A stretch of DNA of 8,756 nucleotides from Escherichia coli. Its GTDB lineage: Bacteria > Pseudomonadota > Gammaproteobacteria > Enterobacterales > Enterobacteriaceae. Positions 1 through 8,756 of the stretch are shown here, one piece after another. Position 1 is the stretch's first letter. The number at the start of each line of letters is the position of its first letter. A model generated the notes under the pieces. That model saw only the letters and a program-made list of their open reading frames with translations. It made no database searches and was not told where the DNA came from. Location: the NCBI RefSeq assembly GCF_003334385.1, contig NZ_QOWN01000071.1; one strand, given 5' to 3'. A program made the position numbers and the translations under genes.

Positions 1-99
1 AACGCGAGGCATCGTCTTAACGAGGCACCGAGGCGTCGCATTCTTCAGATGGTTCAACCCTTAAGTTAGCGCTTATGAGATTTTTCCCCGCCAGCGTCA

Positions 100-876
100 T
101 CATTTCCGGATTTTCGCCAGTGCATCCGCCATGCTGCGGATTTCATCCCGTGCCTCCAGAACAACCTCCCGCAGAATATCCCGGTCAAACCAGCGACGGG
201 ACGGTTCATCCGGTATACGCAGCACATCACAGACCAGACCACTGGCCAGGATATGCTCAATACAATCGCTGACCAGGTACATTTCCACCGACGAAAAACG
301 TGCTCCCCGGTTCACGATGGCATCGAGCACCACGGGCAGATTTTCGTCATCTTCATCAAGCCAGCAGGGGTAATCGCTTTCCTTCACAACCAGACGAAAG
401 CGGCGCGTCTGGCGGGTCAGCAACGTCTGACCGGTGGTGGTCAACGCCGCACGGATACGCCGCGCATCTTCTGCCACCCGGCAACTGACACTGCATACTG
501 CATCGCGCACCGCATCAAAAACCGCCCTGATTTCTTCCTCCGTCAGCCATTCACCGGCATACGGGAAAGACACCTGCGTTCCGTCTGCCGGAAGTACCGG
601 CAGCGACTGCCACTGACTGCCGGACAGTACAACTTCCGCCCCGGTTCCGGTCAGTTTCTGAATGGCGGAGGCCAGGTGCGGCGGCAGCACGCCATCGTGG
701 CGGTTAACGAGTAACGTCGCCAGCCGGGGCGCATCCAGCAGAACATAAATGCTGATCCAGCCCGGATACTTCGGGTTACGCTGGTCAACATCCGTCTCTT
801 CCGGCCAGCCCTGCGCCAGCAGCAGGTTGCGGGCGTGACGACAAATCAGTGCGTTCAGCGTTGTGTTTTCGTTCAT
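100..876 (-). CDS. Hypothetical protein (258 aa), last gene of the methyltransferase-led operon
   Basis: Long ORF on the minus strand. The reverse complement of 877-895 gives ttcaGGGAGAacgattaat immediately before the ATG, a Shine-Dalgarno-like GGGAGA. It follows the three upstream minus-strand genes with short gaps. I do not recognise a family; function unknown. Confidence 0.7.
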
Positions 877-921
877 GATTAATCGTTCTCCCTGAATCGC
901 CGCCCGGAGGCGGCGATAACA

Positions 922-1356
922 TCAGTCGTTTTCGTGTCTGTTGTTTTTCAGCAGGGTGCGGGCCTGATTAATCACCGCCTGACGGCGGGTGACGCATTCC
1001 GGGACGGCGAGGCCATAATCCCGGGCGGCCCATTCACGTTTCCACAATGCCTGTTCAGCGGTCTGAATCAGGGACGTCAGCAGTTCAGCAGGGACGGTCA
1101 CCTGGCGGTTTTCTCTCACGTTATTGATGATCTCCATCGCCACGCCGGAAGAAATACCGGATTCAGTCCGCTGGTCTTCCGGGATGTCCTCCAGGCGCGC
1201 CAGGACGGTTCTGATTTCATGATCGGACAGAGAAATATCCATTCCGTCAGCGAGGGCCTGAATCTCTTCCGGGGACCAGATAACCAGCATCAGCGGCGTG
1301 TCTCCCGGATACTTTGCTGCCAGCGCCCGGCATAGCGTTTCGCATGTTCCGTACAT
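922..1356 (-). CDS. Hypothetical protein (144 aa), third gene of the methyltransferase-led operon
   Basis: ORF with a strong RBS: the reverse complement upstream of the ATG reads gattgAGAAGGAGAcgaga-ATG. It sits 13 bp downstream of the preceding minus-strand gene. No family recognised from the sequence alone. Confidence 0.7.
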   Translation of the reverse strand: MYGTCETLCRALAAKYPGDTPLMLVIWSPEEIQALADGMDISLSDHEIRTVLARLEDIPEDQRTESGISSGVAMEIINNVRENRQVTVPAELLTSLIQTAEQALWKREWAARDYGLAVPECVTRRQAVINQARTLLKNNRHEND

Positions 1357-1369
1357 TCTCGTCTCCTTC

Positions 1370-1591
1370 TCAATCTTTGAAGCAGGAATCCAGTTCCAGA
1401 ATTTCGGTATACGCCTCCATGAACAGGCGATTGGCGCGATACAGCGTCTGGCGTGTCAGGCGTTCAACAAGCACATCGGAATCAAAGCGACAGCGATGCT
1501 CCATATCGTTCAGCCTGGCCCGAAGGTCACACATGGTGTTGGCCACCTCCGCCACGTCGGCGCGAAGTTTTTCGTGTCCGGCATAGTTCAT
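1370..1591 (-). CDS. Hypothetical small protein (73 aa), translationally coupled to the methyltransferase gene
   Basis: Its ATG directly abuts the methyltransferase stop (minus strand reads ...TAA-ATG). GGAGG lies 8 nt upstream of the ATG, inside the methyltransferase 3' end. Small size makes the call less certain. Confidence 0.6.
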   Translation of the reverse strand: MNYAGHEKLRADVAEVANTMCDLRARLNDMEHRCRFDSDVLVERLTRQTLYRANRLFMEAYTEILELDSCFKD

Positions 1592-2275
1592 TTACGCAGC
1601 CTCCGGTTCAAACCAGTTATCATTCGCGGCCCCCTGCTGCATGGCCCGTTGCACGGCGGCCAGTCGTTGCTGTCCGGCACGGTGATACTGTTCAAGCAGC
1701 TCGATACCGATATACCGGCGTCCGGACTGAAGGGCGGCCACGCAGGTTGAGCCGCTGCCTGCAAACGGGTCCAGCACAATCGCGTTCGGATGTGTGAAGC
1801 TCTCAATCAGCGGTTGCAGGCTGGTAACGGGCTTTTCCGTCGGGTGATGACGATTGCCTGAATATTTCCAGCCCAGCACATCCGGCAGAGGGTTACGGGG
1901 CCGGGCCGGACTGCCCTTTGCCAGGATGTAAGCGCATTCGTGGCGGTACGCGACATACGCAGATTTGGATGTGTAGTTTTTGGTGAACACGAGGTGCCCT
2001 GCCACGCTGAATCCGGCGCGTTTCCAGGCCGCCATAAAGCGGTCAATACGGTGCCAGCCGTAGAAGCTGACCATCAGCGCGTCTTTTTTGAGTACGCGGT
2101 ACATTTCATTACAGGCCGGTTGCAGCCATTCATCGGTTTTATCGCCAGCGATGGTGCGCCCGAAACGGTCACGAAAACCGACGAGGTACGGCGGGTCAGT
2201 CAGTATGAAATCAATGGCGTTATCAGGAATACGGGCCATAACATCGATGCAGTTACCGAGGACAAAACGGGACAT
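1592..2275 (-). CDS. Orphan DNA methyltransferase, N6-adenine/N4-cytosine beta-class (227 aa)
   Basis: The translation contains DPPY near the N-terminus (ILTDPPYLVGF) followed later by an FxGxG AdoMet-binding motif (VLDPFAGSGST) and HPTEKP. This motif order is typical of beta-class amino-methyltransferases. RBS AGGAG lies upstream of the ATG (reverse complement of 2276-2290 is agaAGGAGcgttgtt). No restriction endonuclease partner is adjacent. Confidence 0.85.
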   Translation of the reverse strand: MSRFVLGNCIDVMARIPDNAIDFILTDPPYLVGFRDRFGRTIAGDKTDEWLQPACNEMYRVLKKDALMVSFYGWHRIDRFMAAWKRAGFSVAGHLVFTKNYTSKSAYVAYRHECAYILAKGSPARPRNPLPDVLGWKYSGNRHHPTEKPVTSLQPLIESFTHPNAIVLDPFAGSGSTCVAALQSGRRYIGIELLEQYHRAGQQRLAAVQRAMQQGAANDNWFEPEAA

Positions 2276-2620
2276 AACAACGCTCCTTCTCTTACAGAGG
2301 ACACCAGGAGGGCACCCCTGTGGTGCCCGTTCCCCGCTGCCTGTGGGCTGTTCACCGCGTCCGGTAACGGGTCAGGCCGACCGTGGAATACCGCAGCAGC
2401 CGTCGTCTTTCTGACGGCAAGGCTATGCCGCGAAAGCGGCTTGAAGGGCGTTCATCAGAAAAGGGCTCCTGGCTGGCGTACACTGGCACCGACGCCAGCC
2501 AGGAGCGGTAAAAGCGCCCGTCCCGTGCCTGATCGGACGCGGGACACTGACCACAGGCAGCGTTCCTGCCGCGCCGCGTCAGCCGGCGCAGTAAAAAGAG
2601 GAGCCCGGCGACATCCTTTG
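2276..2620 (-). promoter_or_regulatory. GC-rich, hairpin-dense non-coding leader upstream of the methyltransferase operon (possible promoter or single-strand promoter-like element)
   Basis: No credible ORF with an RBS. Inverted repeats read directly: perfect 15-bp stem gctcctggctggcgt (2465-2479) with acgccagccaggagc (2492-2506) and a 12-nt loop; GGGCACC (2310-2316) with GGTGCCC (2322-2328); GCCGTC (2399-2404) with GACGGC (2413-2418); gtcccg (2520-2525) with cgggac (2540-2545). The region lies between the parR terminator and the methyltransferase start. Confidence 0.45.
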
Positions 2621-2654
2621 TCGGAAAAGAAAAAAGGACGCAACAGCGTCCTTT
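2621..2654 (-). terminator. Rho-independent terminator downstream of the parR-like gene
   Basis: Stem AGGACGC (2635-2641) and GCGTCCT (2646-2652) with loop AACA. On the minus strand the hairpin is followed by a U-run (plus-strand A-run ggaaaagaaaaaa at 2621-2634). It sits 16 bp after the parR-like stop. Confidence 0.65.
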
Positions 2655-2669
2655 AACAGAGTTCAGTTC

Positions 2670-3098
2670 TTATTCATCATCCGGAAACAAGTTCTTAATG
2701 TTGTTTCTTGTTTCCAGGAGATTCTGATCGACTGGAGCAGATATTTCTTGCGTAGCAGAATCAACCGCAGGCAGGATCGTTTTTGCATTATTACCGGCAG
2801 ACTGCAGAAATGCCTCCAGCAAACGAACAACTTCACCATTTTCCTGTTGTGGTAGCGTACTACTGATAATTCGTTGAATATCCCGCATAGACGTGCTGTC
2901 TGTCAGGAATTCAGCTATCAGAAACGGCAATCGTTCATCCTGTTTCATCAATGCAGCACCACACAACATCATGGCCCGCATTGCCCGACCACGTTCTTTC
3001 TGAGGCAATTTTTCAAGAAACCTGTCAGCCACCCGATCAGCTGCATTTCGTTCCGGATAAATATAAAAAGAGCACTTACGATTATCAGCCATACTCAT
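2670..3098 (-). CDS. parR: ParR/StbB-like centromere-binding partition protein (142 aa)
   Basis: Small gene immediately downstream of the parM-like gene and overlapping it by 4 nt (ATGA). By recollection it resembles plasmid R1 ParR in its central part (...LPQKERGRAMRAMMLCGAALMKQDERLPFLIAEFLT...). An alternative start two codons in (3092) has better SD spacing. Confidence 0.65.
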   Translation of the reverse strand: MSMADNRKCSFYIYPERNAADRVADRFLEKLPQKERGRAMRAMMLCGAALMKQDERLPFLIAEFLTDSTSMRDIQRIISSTLPQQENGEVVRLLEAFLQSAGNNAKTILPAVDSATQEISAPVDQNLLETRNNIKNLFPDDE

Positions 3099-4075
3099 CC
3101 CTTCATTGCCATCATTCCCAACACCAGATCGAACTGAGGATTGTCACTGACAAAGAAACGGTTATCACCCACTCCTGTCGCTTTTTTTACTGCCCCAGCC
3201 ACAAGGCTGGCACCACCGCCAACAACCATAACATGAGTAAAACCAGCAAAGCGTCCTACTGAATCCGCCACACGATGCTGCAGTTTTTTTTCCCGGTCAC
3301 GTAATACTGTCAGGATCTGCTCACGCTGTTCTGCATTCGGGATATAACGAGTCAGGAATTCATTGTCATCCCGGCCCTGGATTAGACGATCTGCAAAATA
3401 AGAACTGGTTCGTGTACTCACATTCACATCCATCGCATGCTTAACTGCTTCAGTAATGATGGAAACGCCTGTCTTGGGGTCACAATAAGTTTTTGTGAAA
3501 CCGGACATTTTGCTGCGGACATGTGCAATATCAAGGGTCGTTCCACCGATATCAACGATCAACAGCGACTCCAGATCATTCAGATCTTTCAGCACGTCAA
3601 AACCGGCAGGCACGGACTCAGGCAAGACACTGACTTTACGAATGGTAAAGTTTTCACGCCCCTGAACTGTTACAGCTCGTCTGACATTATTTTTCTTACG
3701 TTCGATATTAGCCAGATTTGGCTGATCGTTCTCATCCAGATACTCACCTAAAGGTAAAGTCACAACAATATCAACAGGTTGCGGAGCAATACCTGACTGC
3801 ATCAACGCATGATGAATAGCAACCACATTAACGTCGCTGTACTGATAACGCGTTTCTGTGGTGCGCACTGCATCCGGACTCAATTGATCAAAGCTGTATT
3901 TCTCTCCATCAATCTCATAGTTTGCGGAAGCGGGTATAGTGGCATCAGTCAGTCCCTGCAGCGTCATAGACCATTCCGGTTTAAAACTATTCGGGCTAAT
4001 TAACGTTTTCACTGCACCGTCTTCAACCCAAGCCAGTTTGATGTTGGTAGAACCGTCATCTACAAAGATACGCAT
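3095..4075 (-). CDS. parM: ParM/StbA-like actin-family plasmid segregation ATPase
   Basis: The N-terminus MRIFVDDGSTNIKL, the phosphate-2-like LIVDIGGTTLDIAHV, and HVMVVGGGASLV match recalled ParM/StbA (R1/R100) motifs. I place the start at the ATG at 4075-4073, preceded by GTGAGGTTCTGG. The ORF track extends to a GTG at 4087 that overlaps that SD. Confidence 0.85.
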   Translation of the reverse strand: MRIFVDDGSTNIKLAWVEDGAVKTLISPNSFKPEWSMTLQGLTDATIPASANYEIDGEKYSFDQLSPDAVRTTETRYQYSDVNVVAIHHALMQSGIAPQPVDIVVTLPLGEYLDENDQPNLANIERKKNNVRRAVTVQGRENFTIRKVSVLPESVPAGFDVLKDLNDLESLLIVDIGGTTLDIAHVRSKMSGFTKTYCDPKTGVSIITEAVKHAMDVNVSTRTSSYFADRLIQGRDDNEFLTRYIPNAEQREQILTVLRDREKKLQHRVADSVGRFAGFTHVMVVGGGASLVAGAVKKATGVGDNRFFVSDNPQFDLVLGMMAMKG

Positions 4076-4087
4076 CCAGAACCTCAC

Positions 4088-4300
4088 AGAATAAAATGGA
4101 TTTTTTTAGAAAAATATGGTGTCGAAAAAGATTATCACCTAGAAACACGCATCAGTAAAGACCTGATATCGGCCACAAACAGAAAGATAAAGAAAAATAA
4201 AGACAAAAACCGACTCAAATAGCACACCAGGGAACAAACAAGAACAATAAAAGACAAATGCAGTTAAAATTCAGAAAAAAACTGAACAGGTGAACGGAGA
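4088..4300 (-). promoter_or_regulatory. AT-rich upstream region of the parMR-like operon (putative promoter and parC-like centromere)
   Basis: About 210 bp of A-rich non-coding sequence directly upstream of parM, where parC sits in known parMRC loci. Loose recurrences of aaagac/aaagat motifs are visible, but I could not delineate clear iterons by eye. Confidence 0.3.
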
Positions 4301-4664
4301 AGGGGGCTCATCCAGCACATGCTGTATTTGGGTTCAGTTTGGAATTCGGAAAATAAACCACGTTAAGACTATTTTTTAGCCAAATGGCTTTCAGGAATCG
4401 CCAGAATGGCGGGACAACAGTGGTTTTGGTGTCCGAAATCGTACAATTCTGTACATCTACGCAAGGAAATGTACGGAAGTAAGCCAAATGGTTATCGGAC
4501 GGTAGGAACATTTCGTACAGCCTTTACGTTCAGTGAGTGAGCTGGTCTGGATGTAACCACTCGTTCAACTCAATTCTCTTAGCGTGGGAAAATTTCCTTT
4601 CTCCAAGCGGCTCCCAAACCGTAATTCCCGGCAAGCCCGGTAAGCTGGGCAGCAAGCTAGGCAC

Positions 4665-4964
4665 TCAAAGAATGAACCGGGGATTCTGACGCTGACCTAC
4701 AACCGCCAGGATATTGACACGACGGGCCTTATCATTCACTTCATAAAGTACATGCTGCCCAAGTAAGCTAATACGACGAACCCCTTCGCCATAGCGTTCA
4801 TCAGTTTCATACAGCCGAGGGTAATCAGCCAGGCGATCGGTTGCAGTGATCAGACGCTCTGTCACGTTCCTTGCATCCCAAAGAGATGCATTCTCAGCCA
4901 GATATTCAAACAGCGCAGTTATATCTTCAATTGCACCTGGTCGCCATTCTATTTCATAACTCAT
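4665..4964 (-). CDS. RelE/ParE-superfamily toxin of a type II toxin-antitoxin module (99 aa)
   Basis: About 100-aa protein whose start overlaps the upstream small gene by 11 nt. The sequence pattern (YEIEWRPGAIEDI..., ...RRVNILAVVGQRQN) is consistent with RelE/ParE-fold toxins as I recall them. Confidence 0.7.
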   Translation of the reverse strand: MSYEIEWRPGAIEDITALFEYLAENASLWDARNVTERLITATDRLADYPRLYETDERYGEGVRRISLLGQHVLYEVNDKARRVNILAVVGQRQNPRFIL

Positions 4965-5217
4965 TGCGCAGTTCCTGATAACGTCCCTGTAGTTGCTGGC
5001 GCAGTTGCGCGGAACTCATTCCCGGCCGCTTATCGGCGCGAGCAGCGGCAACTTTCGCTCGTATCTGTTCGTCGTATTCTGCCCGTGCCAGTTCTTCATT
5101 AGCAAGGCGTTGCAATAGTGCAGACTTGTCTGTACTGCCTTCTGGAAAAATACGAGGCAGGCTTTCGGCCAGCTCGCGCAGGAAATTGGCGTTTTCGTAA
5201 TGTGTGGTGCTATTCAT
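4954..5217 (-). CDS. Putative antitoxin of the RelE/ParE-type module (87 aa from the second ATG)
   Basis: Small ORF upstream of and overlapping the toxin gene (antitoxin-first order). I prefer the second ATG at 5217 because the minus strand reads ATGAAGGGGGAGTCAACT-ATG, which places a GGGGGAG SD about 7 nt before it. The ORF track starts at 5235. Antitoxin family uncertain. Confidence 0.6.
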   Translation of the reverse strand: MNSTTHYENANFLRELAESLPRIFPEGSTDKSALLQRLANEELARAEYDEQIRAKVAAARADKRPGMSSAQLRQQLQGRYQELRNEL

Positions 5218-5291
5218 AGTTGACTCCCCCTTCATTTAATAAAGAGCAATTACAGGTTTTTTGATGTCGTACGCATGGGTATAACGAGTCA

Positions 5292-5305
5292 GAATATCGA
5301 TATTC
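5292..5305. promoter_or_regulatory. Perfect 14-bp palindrome GAATATCGATATTC upstream of the toxin-antitoxin operon (candidate operator)
   Basis: Read directly; self-complementary. It lies about 75-88 bp upstream of the preferred antitoxin ATG. Type II antitoxins commonly autoregulate through palindromic operators. Confidence 0.3.
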
Positions 5306-5619
5306 ACTCCGATGATATTGTTTCACAGGCAGGCGATAACCGGAAAATAATGCTCATTTACCTGGCAATCTGCGTGTTGTCAGGTTTTATACAGAGTATA
5401 TAACCTTTCAGACACAGCCACCAACATATGCCGCGTCAGCGGCATGGAAGGCGGTACTCTGTGGTTACATGCGGCACAAGTGTAAAACCGCCGAAGCCCG
5501 GCGTAAGCCGGTACTGATTGACAGGTTTCACCTTACCCACCCCCGGCCCTGCCAGACAGTGGGGGCTTAAAGGGGTAGTGTGACATCCTGACAGCAACTG
5601 AAAGCAAAATGTAAACACA

Positions 5620-5812
5620 ATATTAATTTTTGTAAAAAAGCAATAACTATACAAACATAACTAACTGATATTACTATTAAATATTTAACAGGCGTACAAA
5701 TTTAGTTCAAATTATCATTGCAAAATATAGTTAATTACAGCAAGTAACTAGTGTTGGCCAACATACTATTCAGATGTCATAAGCATTAATTTCCCTTAAA
5801 AAAGGAGTCCTT
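5620..5812 (+). promoter_or_regulatory. AT-rich promoter and leader region of the microcin B17 operon
   Basis: Strongly AT-rich tract directly upstream of mcbA. Candidate -10-like hexamers are TATAGT (5726-5731) and TCATAA (5777-5782), the latter with TTGGCC (5754-5759) 17 bp upstream. mcbA RBS AGGAG is at 5803-5807, 5 nt before the ATG. Exact promoter not mapped. Confidence 0.4.
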
Positions 5813-6010
5813 ATGGAATTAAAAGCGAGTGAATTTGGTGTAGTTTTGTCCGTTGATGCTCTTAAATTATCACGCCAGTCTCCATTAGGTGTTGGCATTG
5901 GTGGTGGTGGCGGCGGTAGCTGCGGTGGTCAAGGTGGCGGTTGTGGTGGTTGCAGCAACGGTTGTAGTGGTGGAAACGGTGGCAGCGGCGGAAGTGGTTC
6001 ACATATCTGA
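5813..6010 (+). CDS. mcbA: Microcin B17 precursor peptide McbA, variant with a shortened poly-Gly linker (65 aa)
   Basis: The translation MELKASEFGVVLSVDALKLSRQSPLG-VGIGGGGGG-SCGGQGGGCGGCSNGCSGGNGGSGGSGSHI matches the microcin B17 leader and core as I recall them, including the Gly-Ser-Cys and Gly-Cys-Ser heterocyclisation sites. Only 6 Gly codons (5900-5917) follow VGI. Confidence 0.95.
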   Translation: MELKASEFGVVLSVDALKLSRQSPLGVGIGGGGGGSCGGQGGGCGGCSNGCSGGNGGSGGSGSHI

Positions 6011-6027
6011 TACGTTGAATTAACCGT

Positions 6028-6050
6028 TCAGGGAGCATGGTGCTCCCTGA
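6028..6050 (+). promoter_or_regulatory. Perfect stem-loop between mcbA and mcbB (10-bp stem, 3-nt loop)
   Basis: tCAGGGAGCA (6028-6037), loop TGG, TGCTCCCTGa (6041-6050), verified base by base. It starts 18 nt after the mcbA stop and encloses the first in-frame ATG of the mcbB ORF (6037). It is not followed by a U-tract. Confidence 0.5.
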
Positions 6051-6924
6051 TATTAAAAAAGGAAAAGATATGATCAATATTCTGCCATTTGAGATAATTT
6101 CCAGAAATACAAAGACCCTGCTTATTACCTACATTTCTTCAGTAGACATTACACATGAGGGAATGAAAAAAGTACTCGAAAGCCTACGATCCAAACAGGG
6201 TATTATTTCTGAATACCTCCTTGATAAACTACTGGACGAATCGCTTATTGATAAAGACAAGGGCAAAGAGTTTCTTATTACCACAGGCGTGATAAATAAA
6301 ACGAAAACATCACCTCTCTGGGTAAACTCAGTCATAATAAGCGATGTTCCACATCTTTTCAGTAATGCCCGGGAACAATGGAAATCTGATGGTGTTTTTG
6401 TTTCTCATATCATTGATATAAAAGATAATAATATTAATGTGAGCGATTCAACACTAATCTGGTTACATCTCGAAAACTATCATTCAGACATTGTAAAAAG
6501 AATCTATTCAAAATTTGAAAGTAACCCTGGTGTTGCCTTCATCCAAAGCTACTACCTAAAGGAGTCATTCAGGATAGATGGAGTATATTCACCTGATCTT
6601 GGTACTCCCTGCCATTTTTGTCATATAGAGAGATGGCTGAGCAGGGAAGAAAAAAGCTTCAGACGTAACGAAATGTCCTGGGCAAATTTACTTCAGTTAC
6701 TGAAAAAATACTAAATGACACTACCAGCATTGGCTTTAGGCGAGTCAGAAAGAGGATTCAGCTATCATTTAATAAAACGGCGACTTCAGGAGTTGACAGG
6801 TACTTCACTGGTTAAAAGTCATGTCGATAGCTTTATGTCATCTGTTAGCGCTGATTTAATCACCTGTATTTTATGTAAAGAGCCGGTAATTCACTGGCAG
6901 GCTTGCAGCTGTCTGGAGAGATAA
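6037..6924 (+). pseudogene. mcbB: mcbB (microcin B17 synthetase zinc-binding scaffold subunit) interrupted by an in-frame TAA at 6712-6714
   Basis: The 225-aa ORF 6037-6714 and the 69-aa ORF 6715-6924 are in the same frame, separated only by TAA. Together they give 225+1+69 = 295 codons, which is the McbB length I recall. CHFCH lies in the N-terminal part and CILC...CSC in the C-terminal part. An RBS-supported alternative start is the ATG at 6070 (AGGA at 6060-6063). Confidence 0.8.
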
Positions 6925-6925
6925 C

Positions 6926-7744
6926 ATGTCAAAACACGAACTCTCTTTAGTGGAAGTAACGCATTACACAGATCCTGAAGTTCTGGCCATTGTTAAAGAT
7001 TTTCATGTCAGAGGTAACTTTGCTTCCCTCCCCGAATTTGCTGAACGAACTTTCGTGTCCGCGGTACCTCTTGCCCATCTGGAGAAATTTGAAAATAAAG
7101 AAGTTCTCTTCAGGCCAGGTTTCAGCTCCGTAATAAACATATCCTCATCACATAATTTTAGTCGTGAAAGGCTCCCATCAGGAATAAACTTTTGCGACAA
7201 AAATAAACTTTCCATTCGTACTATTGAAAAGTTATTAGTCAATGCATTCAGCTCACCTGATCCTAGCTCTGTAAGAAGACCTTATCCTTCTGGGGGGGCA
7301 TTGTGCCCGATTGAAGTTTTTTTATGCAGATTATCTGAAAATACAGAAAACTGGCAGTCAGGAACTAATGTTTATCACTACCTGCCGCTAAGTCAGGCAC
7401 TGGAACCTGTTGCTACATGTAATACTCAGTCACTCTACCGAAGCCTGTCCGGTGGGGATTCGGAACGTCTTGGTAAACCCCATTTTGCTCTCGTCTATTG
7501 CATTATTTTTGAAAAAGCTTTGTTCAAATATCGCTACAGAGGATACCGGATGGCCTTAATGGAAACAGGTTCGATGTATCAGAACGCAGTATTGGTTGCA
7601 GATCAAATAGGACTGAAAAACCGGGTATGGGCGGGATATACCGATTCATACGTAGCAAAAACAATGAATCTGGATCAGAGGACTGTAGCGCCACTGATCG
7701 TTCAGTTTTTTGGAGATGTAAACGATGATAAATGTCTACAGTAA
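6926..7744 (+). CDS. mcbC: McbC, FMN-dependent dehydrogenase of microcin B17 synthetase (272 aa)
   Basis: 272-aa ORF, matching the McbC length I recall. It starts 1 nt after the mcbB stop, with GGAGAG 7 nt upstream, and contains a nitroreductase-like RPYPSGGALCPIE region. The gene order follows the known mcb operon. Confidence 0.93.
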   Translation: MSKHELSLVEVTHYTDPEVLAIVKDFHVRGNFASLPEFAERTFVSAVPLAHLEKFENKEVLFRPGFSSVINISSSHNFSRERLPSGINFCDKNKLSIRTIEKLLVNAFSSPDPSSVRRPYPSGGALCPIEVFLCRLSENTENWQSGTNVYHYLPLSQALEPVATCNTQSLYRSLSGGDSERLGKPHFALVYCIIFEKALFKYRYRGYRMALMETGSMYQNAVLVADQIGLKNRVWAGYTDSYVAKTMNLDQRTVAPLIVQFFGDVNDDKCLQ

Positions 7745-8618
7745 CCTTATGTCCGCATGGCCGGCCACAATGGCCATGAGTCCAAAACTGAACAGAAATA
7801 TGCCAACGTTTTCTCAGATATGGGACTATGAGCGTATTACACCAGCCAGCGCGGCCGGTGAAACTCTGAAGTCAATTCAGGGGGCAATAGGTGAATATTT
7901 TGAACGCCGTCATTTTTTTAATGAGATAGTCACCGGTGGTCAGAAAACATTATATGAGATGATGCCTCCATCTGCTGCAAAGGCTTTTACCGAAGCATTT
8001 TTTCAGATCTCATCACTGACCCGCGATGAAATCATAACCCATAAATTTAAAACGGTCAGAGCCTTTAATCTGTTTAGCCTTGAACAACAAGAAATACCTG
8101 CAGTCATAATTGCACTCGACAATATAACCGCTGCAGATGATCTGAAATTTTATCCTGACAGAGATACATGCGGATGTAGCTTTCATGGTAGTTTGAACGA
8201 TGCCATAGAAGGTTCCTTGTGTGAATTTATGGAGAGACAGTCCCTCCTTCTTTACTGGTTACAGGGAAAAGCCAATACTGAAATATCCAGTGAAATAGTA
8301 ACAGGCATAAATCATATTGATGAGATTTTACTGGCTCTCAGGTCAGAAGGAGATATCAGGATTTTCGATATCACCCTGCCCGGAGCTCCTGGACACGCAG
8401 TACTAACCCTGTATGGCACAAAAAACAAAATCAGTCGAATAAAATACAGTACCGGATTATCCTATGCTAATAGTCTGAAAAAAGCACTTTGTAAATCCGT
8501 AGTGGAATTGTGGCAATCGTATATATGCCTGCACAACTTTCTTATTGGCGGTTATACTGATGATGACATTATTGATAGTTACCAGCGTCACTTTATGTCA
8601 TGCAACAAGTACGGGTAA
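7725..8618 (+). pseudogene. mcbD: mcbD (YcaO-type cyclodehydratase of microcin B17 synthetase) truncated by an IS1-family insertion
   Basis: The ORF starts MINVYSNLMSAW... and overlaps the mcbC end by 20 nt. It runs 296 mcbD codons and then ends in G-stop, where the codons are supplied by the IS1 terminal repeat (GG-TAA-TG). McbD is about 396 aa by recollection, so roughly the C-terminal 100 residues are missing. Confidence 0.88.
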
Positions 8619-8636
8619 TGACTCCAACTTACTGAT
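8614..8636. repeat. IS1 terminal inverted repeat (23 bp)
   Basis: GGTAATGACTCCAACTTACTGAT matches the IS1 terminal inverted repeat consensus. It directly abuts mcbD coding sequence. Confidence 0.75.
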
Positions 8637-8756
8637 AGTGTTTTATGTTCAGATAATGCCCGATGACCTTGTCATGCAACTCCACCGATTTTGAGAACGA
8701 CAGTAACTTCCGTCCCAGCCTTGCCAGATGTTGTCTCAGATTCAGATTATGTCGCT
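8629..8756 (-). CDS. insB: IS1 transposase InsB, C-terminal fragment (5' end outside the window)
   Basis: The minus-strand translation ...[41 protein letters not shown]-stop matches the IS1 InsB C-terminus from memory. The stop TAA is the complement of 8629-8631. Confidence 0.75.

Follow-up and report, generated by a model that had tools for sequence, protein, structure and literature searches.

[quoted passage not shown] A 2026 TIME survey of Enterobacteriaceae by Gomi and Yano covered four of them, IS101 (209 bp), IMU (288 bp), MITESen1 (256 bp), and TIME244 (244 bp), each present in no more than 2.3% of Enterobacteriaceae genomes (PMC13367494). Two of the four, IS101 and TIME244, set a precedent for TIMEs that carry a res site. 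IS101 of plasmid pSC101 consists of 38-bp repeats and a functional res, has no gene, is mobilized by Tn1000 (gamma-delta), and needs both transposase and resolvase in trans (PMC13367494; PMC4133298). TIME244 is plasmid-borne, and its interior aligns to the res of an autonomous subgroup, putatively of the Tn21 type (PMC13367494). In IMU and MITESen1, no res is recognizable (PMC13367494). TIME1–4 are 262-bp elements of Pseudomonas (PMC4133298).

Here, we analyzed an 8,756-nt stretch of Escherichia coli DNA, referred to below as the window, and conclude that its positions 4330–4615 are very probably a nonautonomous Tn3-family TIME, in which two 38-bp repeats surround a three-subsite res and which contains no gene. 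The window comes from an IncF-like plasmid. Its minus strand carries leading-region genes, among them one for a DNA methylase at 1592–2275, and BLAST aligned window 82–2632 to the ~53.8- to 56.4-kb region of the F plasmid with 92% identity. Over 77–8668, the window is matched at 99.9% identity by a metagenome contig (L122). The features considered below are as follows; the names ParM and toxin were taken from the annotation of homologous plasmids.

2670–3098, minus strand: parR
3095–4087, minus strand: parM
4300–4329: parC-side flank, outside the unit
4330–4615, plus strand: complete miniature element, 286 bp (IRL, left spacer, res, right spacer, IRR), with boundaries from BLAST
4330–4367, plus strand: IRL, 38 bp, GGGTTCAGTTTGGAATTCGGAAAATAAACCACGTTAAG, tip GGGT where the family has GGGG
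4368–4429, plus strand: left subterminal spacer, 62 bp, conserved in close copies, with the small palindrome CGCCAGAATGGCG inside
4430–4455, plus strand: putative res site I, 26 bp, TGTCCGAAAT-CGTACA-ATTCTGTACA, where crossover presumably occurs
4456–4469, plus strand: spacer between sites I and II, 14 bp
4470–4501, plus strand: putative res site II, 32 bp, TGTACGGAAG...TATCGGACG
4510–4534, plus strand: putative res site III region, ATTTCGTACA-GCC-TTTACGTTCAG, half-site limits approximate
4535–4577, plus strand: right subterminal spacer, conserved among close copies
4578–4615, minus strand: IRR, 38 bp, reading GGGAGCCGCTTGGAGAAAGGAAATTTTCCCACGCTAAG on that strand, tip GGGA where the family has GGGG
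4616–4664: 3′ flank of the toxin gene, outside the unit
4665–4964: RelE/ParE toxin gene, beyond the element
4954–5235: antitoxin gene of the RelE/ParE pair
5813–6010, plus strand: mcbA, glycine-rich, the first of the microcin B17 genes

A bounded unit with Tn3-type terminal repeats

The original prediction, made from the sequence alone, had singled out 4300–4664 as noncoding DNA that is not AT-rich like a typical promoter and that carries a cluster of GTAC-containing motifs. Its description of the span was accurate. The largest open reading frame (ORF) there encodes 67 amino acids (minus strand, 4308–4511), with three more of 44 to 50 amino acids in the ORF list; the G+C content is 47.1% versus 47.6% for the whole window; and the motifs are located where they had been placed (CGTACA at 4440 and 4514, TGTACA at 4450, and TGTACG at 4470). 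Taken alone, the clustering of GTAC is marginal, as four or more occurrences within 80 bp were found in 21 of 300 dinucleotide-preserving shuffles of the window (7%). The BLAST search that had been suggested as a check revealed not a unique spacer but a sharply bounded repeated unit: in thousands of plasmid records, matches start at 4329/4330 and end at 4610–4619. There is thus a real unit inside the predicted span, which was drawn slightly too wide; what had been missed above all is the nature of this unit, a mobile element with defined boundaries and terminal inverted repeats of the Tn3 type.

The IRL is identical to the family IRL consensus at 35 of 38 positions and to the variant found in pSTEC299_1 (L002) at 37 of 38; among named repeats, the IRL of IMU matches it at 31 of 38 positions and the Tn21 repeat at 28 of 38. 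The IRR is identical to the family IRR consensus at 34 of 38 positions, and the IRR of MITESen1 matches the repeats of the element at 29 of 38. When the whole window was scanned with a panel of Tn3-family repeats, exactly two matches were obtained. They lie in inverted orientation at a distance of 286 bp and match family variants at 37 and 34 of 38 positions, while 30 shuffles of the window gave no more than 25/38. The same scan detected no third Tn3-type repeat beyond the toxin-antitoxin pair, and no transposase or resolvase gene is present in the ORF list of the window. Intact sister copies start with GGGGTCCGCTTGG and end with CCAAGCGGACCCC. The element thus has the Tn3-related 38-bp repeats of a TIME, a length within the 50 to 500 bp that define the class, and no transposase gene; the repeats of TIMEs are ~38 bp long with a GGGG tip and an inner ...ACG(Y)TAAG, and both ends of the window copy carry a mutation in the fourth base of the tip.

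By its structure, the element is a TIME that would work like IS101 or TIME244, and it differs from every named TIME with which it was compared. IS101 is built on the same plan, but its repeats match those of the element at only 15 to 20 of 38 positions, and its interior shows no similarity (local alignment scores of 61 to 74, the shuffle level). Moreover, IS101 belongs to the Tn3/gamma-delta subgroup, whereas the partners of the element have a TnpA that is ~29% identical to that of gamma-delta. The repeats of TIME244 are closer (27 to 28 of 38 positions identical to the IRL), but the interior and the type of res are different (score of 101 to 108, about the shuffle maximum). TIME244 is present in 0.94% of Enterobacteriaceae genomes (PMC13367494), whereas for the element, 531 of the 5426 complete E. 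coli genomes searched contain a match with ≥80% coverage. IMU and MITESen1 are similar in size and share the outer motif GGGGTCAGTTTGGA, but their similarity to the element is limited to the repeats, and the element has a clear res where none is recognizable in them. Identity with any of these four was rejected, since the published sequences share repeats only and differ in the interior. TIME1–4 are set apart by their description. [quoted passage not shown] The element seems not to have been named.

A literature search for the repeat sequence returned a single match, in a table of primers. The published colicin V reverse primer CCGTTTTCCAAGCGGACCCC (PMC12456677) is the consensus right terminal repeat and corresponds to window 4578–4597; the forward primer was present in none of the loci that we fetched. 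Judging from this match, the assay apparently primes in a mobile element beside the colicin V gene. The outcome of this polymerase chain reaction may therefore depend on the mobile element instead of the colicin gene.

The putative res site and autonomous relatives

Tn3-type res sites are located in the intergenic region between tnpA and tnpR. A scan of one genome per species for the exact pattern of the repeat tip yielded 81 loci, nearly all from Enterobacterales, plus Shewanella and Vibrio. At several of these loci, a full-length Tn3-family transposase gene (NF033527, 1213 bits) ends beside the repeat, and a serine recombinase gene is transcribed divergently from tnpA. A full tnpA adjoins a repeat identical to the IRR consensus at 32 to 37 of 38 positions in five loci (L012, L034, L067, L080, and L084), and the consensus matches the terminal repeats of the autonomous transposons in L012 and L084 at 37 of 38. 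The encoded proteins are distant from those of gamma-delta (~29% identity for TnpA and ~35% for TnpR). The autonomous transposons with GGGGTCCGCTTGGAAAACGG... repeats, found in Pantoea (L012), Vibrio (L084), E. coli plasmid pMRSN346647_113.1 (L092), and Klebsiella pneumoniae plasmid pQDE2-D (L093), carry tnpA (994 amino acids), tnpR (197 amino acids), and cargo genes, none of which is present in the window element.

No gap is needed to align window 4430–4534 with the DNA between tnpA and tnpR in these transposons (five miniature copies and seven transposon res were aligned), and subsite sizes and spacing are the same throughout: 26 bp, 14 bp, 32 bp, ~9 bp, and a third site. Ungapped identity to transposon res is 59 to 65 of 106 positions, and the best offset in 500 shuffles reached no more than 48. 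The transposon counterpart of site I reads TGACCGAAAC-CGGTCG-GTTTCGTACA, and the left half of site I matches at 9 of 10 positions the CGTCCGAAAT half-site of gamma-delta res site I, as read from plasmid F. Site II corresponds to TGTCCGAAAG...TTTCGGACA, which has the same 32-bp length and conserved inverted half-sites. The counterpart of site III is AATTCGGACA-TCC-ATTTCGTACGG, which in the autonomous transposons precedes the start codon of tnpR by ~10 bp. The 14-bp spacer between sites I and II is constant in length and variable in sequence in all the miniature copies and transposon res aligned. For the left spacer of the element (4368–4429), inspection by eye revealed no similarity to the transposon regions compared.

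Since the alignment is free of gaps and site I resembles a gamma-delta half-site, the GTAC hexamers can be read as resolvase half-sites of the form TGT(A/C)CG. Hence, of the three guesses that had been made about the region, a cluster of protein-binding sites appears essentially right, the motifs being the putative conserved half-sites of a serine-resolvase res; the other two, a decayed gene and a small RNA (sRNA), did not hold (see below). It is conservation across homologs, not motif count, that makes the GTAC cluster significant. In 28 distinct close copies, only 3 of 40 half-site positions are variable, compared to 16 of 36 positions in the res spacers (Fisher’s exact test, P = 0.0004; the 27-nt word used for fetching copies was left out of the count). 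Likewise, in the five diverse miniature copies and seven transposon res, 35 of 60 half-site columns are invariant versus 5 of 43 others; the half-site limits were drawn after the transposon alignment had been viewed, so these tests of conservation are not fully independent. The res half-sites thus appear to be selectively maintained in the miniature family.

Selection on half-sites is also what one would see if the res had been domesticated, i.e., kept on plasmids for multimer resolution or module exchange by a co-resident resolvase and serving in the window as a stability site beside a partition locus. The location next to parMRC is compatible with such a role, the prevalence of the element on plasmids is very high, the res of the window copy is intact while its tips have decayed, and resolvase homologs ~88% identical to the L012 enzyme are encoded by at least 1400 plasmids. 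Yet, there is no resolvase gene in the window, and copies occur in highly varied contexts (colicin, autotransporter protease, NDM, and qnrD loci) with no constant link to partition genes. Moreover, the same conservation is equally expected of a transposon that needs its cointegrates resolved. We therefore consider domestication unlikely, though it is the strongest of the alternatives to a nonautonomous TIME.

The res of the element is only 56 to 61% identical to that of the autonomous transposons; its direct progenitor was therefore not found among those compared. Two further observations concern the relatives themselves. In pQDE2-D (L093 1841–2845), IS4321 is located ~3.1 kb upstream of the tnpR of the related transposon, beyond an unannotated tnpA stretch and roughly where the tnpA-proximal transposon end is expected; the repeat scan detected no family repeat in this locus. 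IS4321 and IS5075 target the terminal repeats of Tn21-subgroup transposons. In Photorhabdus cinerea DSM 19724 (L014–L025), the same terminal repeat is found ~105 bp from the ends of many draft contigs, the pattern left when a transposon present in many copies interrupts an assembly.

Distribution of copies and target duplications

BLAST against the 72,556 plasmids of PLSDB returned matches in 2184 records (megablast) or 4489 records (blastn), often with two or three matches per record. Among 5426 complete E. coli genomes, 1376 (about a quarter) contain a match, and about a tenth contain one at the coverage of at least 80% given above; 1777 of the E. coli match places are on plasmids versus 34 on chromosomes. 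Under the E. coli matches listed, the annotation shows a hypothetical protein at most and often no feature, and none is marked as a mobile element. The 286-bp unit with the same internal junctions was found in 25 or more flank contexts in several genera. It is located between the colicin E2 operon and a truncated colicin E3 operon in 8-kb plasmids, beside autotransporter protease genes, downstream of groEL in an IncX3 NDM region, upstream of qnrD in a 4.3-kb plasmid, and in IncF backbones. The element sits at junctions of accessory modules. While it is ordinary in kind, the family is of interest for its abundance, its lack of annotation, and a res apparently under selection. Annotating it would improve the reconstruction of plasmid rearrangements and draw attention to a likely hotspot of recombination.

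An A+T-rich target duplication of 5 bp, sometimes 6 bp, is expected of TIMEs; among 25 distinct complete copies, two are flanked by a perfect 5-bp duplication (TAACA in L006 and TAAAT in L041). The 5 bp abutting 145 distinct tips are 83% A+T, compared to 50% in the next 15 bp, which fits the A+T-rich target preference known for Tn3-family elements (PMC4133298). For the family, we infer a mechanism of mobilization in trans. A Tn3-family transposase from an autonomous relative would bind the repeats and make replicative cointegrates at A+T-rich targets, thereby creating 5-bp duplications. A cognate serine resolvase, also supplied in trans, would then bind the TGT(A/C)CG half-sites and recombine at site I, so that the cointegrates are resolved. 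As a side effect, copies located on different replicons could exchange flanks.

The duplications and the distribution also bear on whether a full-length Tn3-family transposon may have lost its interior in place, leaving a remnant in the window that never was a mobile miniature element. TIMEs are thought to originate by loss of the interior (PMC13367494), and the window copy has no target duplication, both of which would agree with such an origin. The recurrence of one 286-bp unit with identical junctions in so many contexts and genera, together with the 5-bp duplications at two copies, makes a remnant formed in situ very improbable; it points to one deletion event whose product then spread.

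Most copies of the TIME lack a duplication, and many have one flank in common with another copy while the other flank differs; thus, L006 and L143 share the left flank, and L110 and L131 share the right one. Sharing of one flank without duplication would be the expected product of recombination between copies or of intramolecular transposition. Tentatively, and with a good deal less confidence than in the assignment to TIMEs, we suggest that the element may be the unnamed commonest Tn3-derived MITE on E. coli plasmids and may act mainly as a portable crossover site. In such a scheme, resolvase from co-resident transposons would recombine copies on different replicons and shuffle modules such as toxin-antitoxin pairs, colicin/microcin operons, and autotransporter genes. 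If true, this role would explain the loss of duplications in ~90% of copies.

Several individual loci deserve mention. In plasmid pO111_4 (NC_013367.1; L001 1287–2036), the element marks the exact point at which a complete colicin E2 operon meets a colicin E3 gene that is truncated N-terminally and accompanied by its immunity and lysis genes. This arrangement suggests that the element mediated the fusion of two colicin plasmids. Lau and Condie (1989) reportedly described a “degenerate transposon-like structure” in ColE9-J, which may be a copy of the present element. In R100-like IncFII plasmids, a mini-structure of ~140 bp is found downstream of pemK (NZ_CP023895.1; L007 5994–6133). Its left 105 bp are 86% identical to the left end of the element, its right end is a repeat of the gamma-delta/IS101 type (...CGTACGTTTTCATCCAGTTGCCCCTCAAACCCC), and the structure apparently combines two different Tn3-family ends in one hybrid. 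Partial matches ending at 4441–4444, which were considered as evidence of resolvase crossover, are unusable because the gamma-delta-type repeat abuts there in R100-like plasmids. In NZ_CP034048.1 (L009 6190–6260), a left-truncated copy is followed, outside its right repeat, by a duplicated tip (TCAAGCGGACCCC) and by a repeat resembling that of MITESen1; Tn3-family ends have accumulated at this place.

The window copy and its surroundings

The copy in the window is worn. The canonical GGGG is lost at both tips, and the flanking pentamers, TATTT and AAACC, form no target duplication; judged by its flanks and tips alone, this copy shows no sign of transposition. The outer domain of Tn3 repeats is needed for cleavage, and since the tips are mutated, the window copy is probably immobile. 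Its res subsites are intact, and to judge from them, it could still serve as a resolvase substrate in the cell.

The window copy also looks chimeric. Its left ~100 bp and left flank match pSTEC299_1 (4 mismatches in 4330–4457 and 15 in 4458–4615), while its right ~190 bp, right flank, and toxin-antitoxin pair match L100, a contig from a metagenome (8 mismatches up to position 4421, 4 beyond it). From the sites that tell the two sources apart, the switch falls between 4396 and 4457. This interval includes the putative site I and is compatible with resolvase crossover, which it does not prove. A four-gamete analysis of 28 copies did not localize recombination to site I: exchange has occurred all along the element, and ordinary homologous recombination therefore explains the mosaicism equally well. 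The window copy probably marks where the parMRC/leading-region backbone was joined by recombination, long ago, to the toxin-antitoxin/microcin B17 module. As a result, some 360 bp of “unexplained” sequence can be annotated as a probably dead mobile-element relic where two plasmid modules joined.

The element and the RelE/ParE pair form a 1.2-kb block, window 4339–5552 being 93% identical to L100 1429–2648. In L100, this block abuts an unrelated Tn3-family tnpA-res-tnpR. That transposon was considered as the autonomous partner of the element and dismissed, since its res is different and its resolvase is closer to the gamma-delta enzyme (49% identity) than to the L012 type (only 36%). Toxin-antitoxin pairs beside res sites are reported as a known feature of Tn3-family transposons (PMC7157771).

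As to the two guesses that failed, a decayed protein-coding gene or an sRNA gene has still less to commend it than a remnant formed in situ, and we regard it as highly improbable. The 67–amino acid ORF is present, and a hypothetical protein is annotated there in a few RefSeq records, but the ORF runs into the nonhomologous flank and is broken by stop codons in close copies (93 to 95% identical) and distant ones alike. The plus strand, taken as single-stranded DNA, folds somewhat better than shuffles (z = −2.3), but this signal is the pairing of the two terminal repeats. No promoter- or terminator-like site lies inside the unit, and there is no Rfam match in the region; the single match in an Rfam scan of the whole window is at chance level and lies elsewhere.

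Least probable of all is another kind of plasmid cis-site, either a cer-like Xer site or a leading-region single-strand promoter/priming signal (Frpo/ssi), since, for all the ~290-bp size, the adjoining leading-region genes, the occurrence in ColE2/E3-type plasmids, and the long-range pairing of the ends, no XerC/XerD core, with its two binding arms around a center of 6 to 8 bp, was found even with three mismatches allowed, BLAST gave no match to F 48–68 kb (the leading region with Frpo1 and Frpo2; PMC9849209), and the fold z score is only −2.3 versus −9.2 for the structured element at 2276–2669.

Two other noncoding segments of the window have recognizable features. Short direct repeats are present in the A-rich segment at 4088–4300, upstream of parM (AAAGACAAA, found twice, as well as AAAATAAAGACAAAAACCGA and AAAATTCAGAAAAAAACTGA). 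This upstream region also holds the sole promoter-like site found (4159–4131, minus strand), and the segment is presumably the parC centromere and promoter. The segment at 2276–2669 (plus strand), upstream of the leading-region methylase gene, is predicted to form a hairpin of −114 kcal/mol as single-stranded DNA (z = −9.2) and is homologous to ~53.8–54.2 kb of the F plasmid. The plus strand here is the template for the minus-strand genes, and the segment looks like a leading-region single-strand promoter/priming element of the Frpo/ssi kind.
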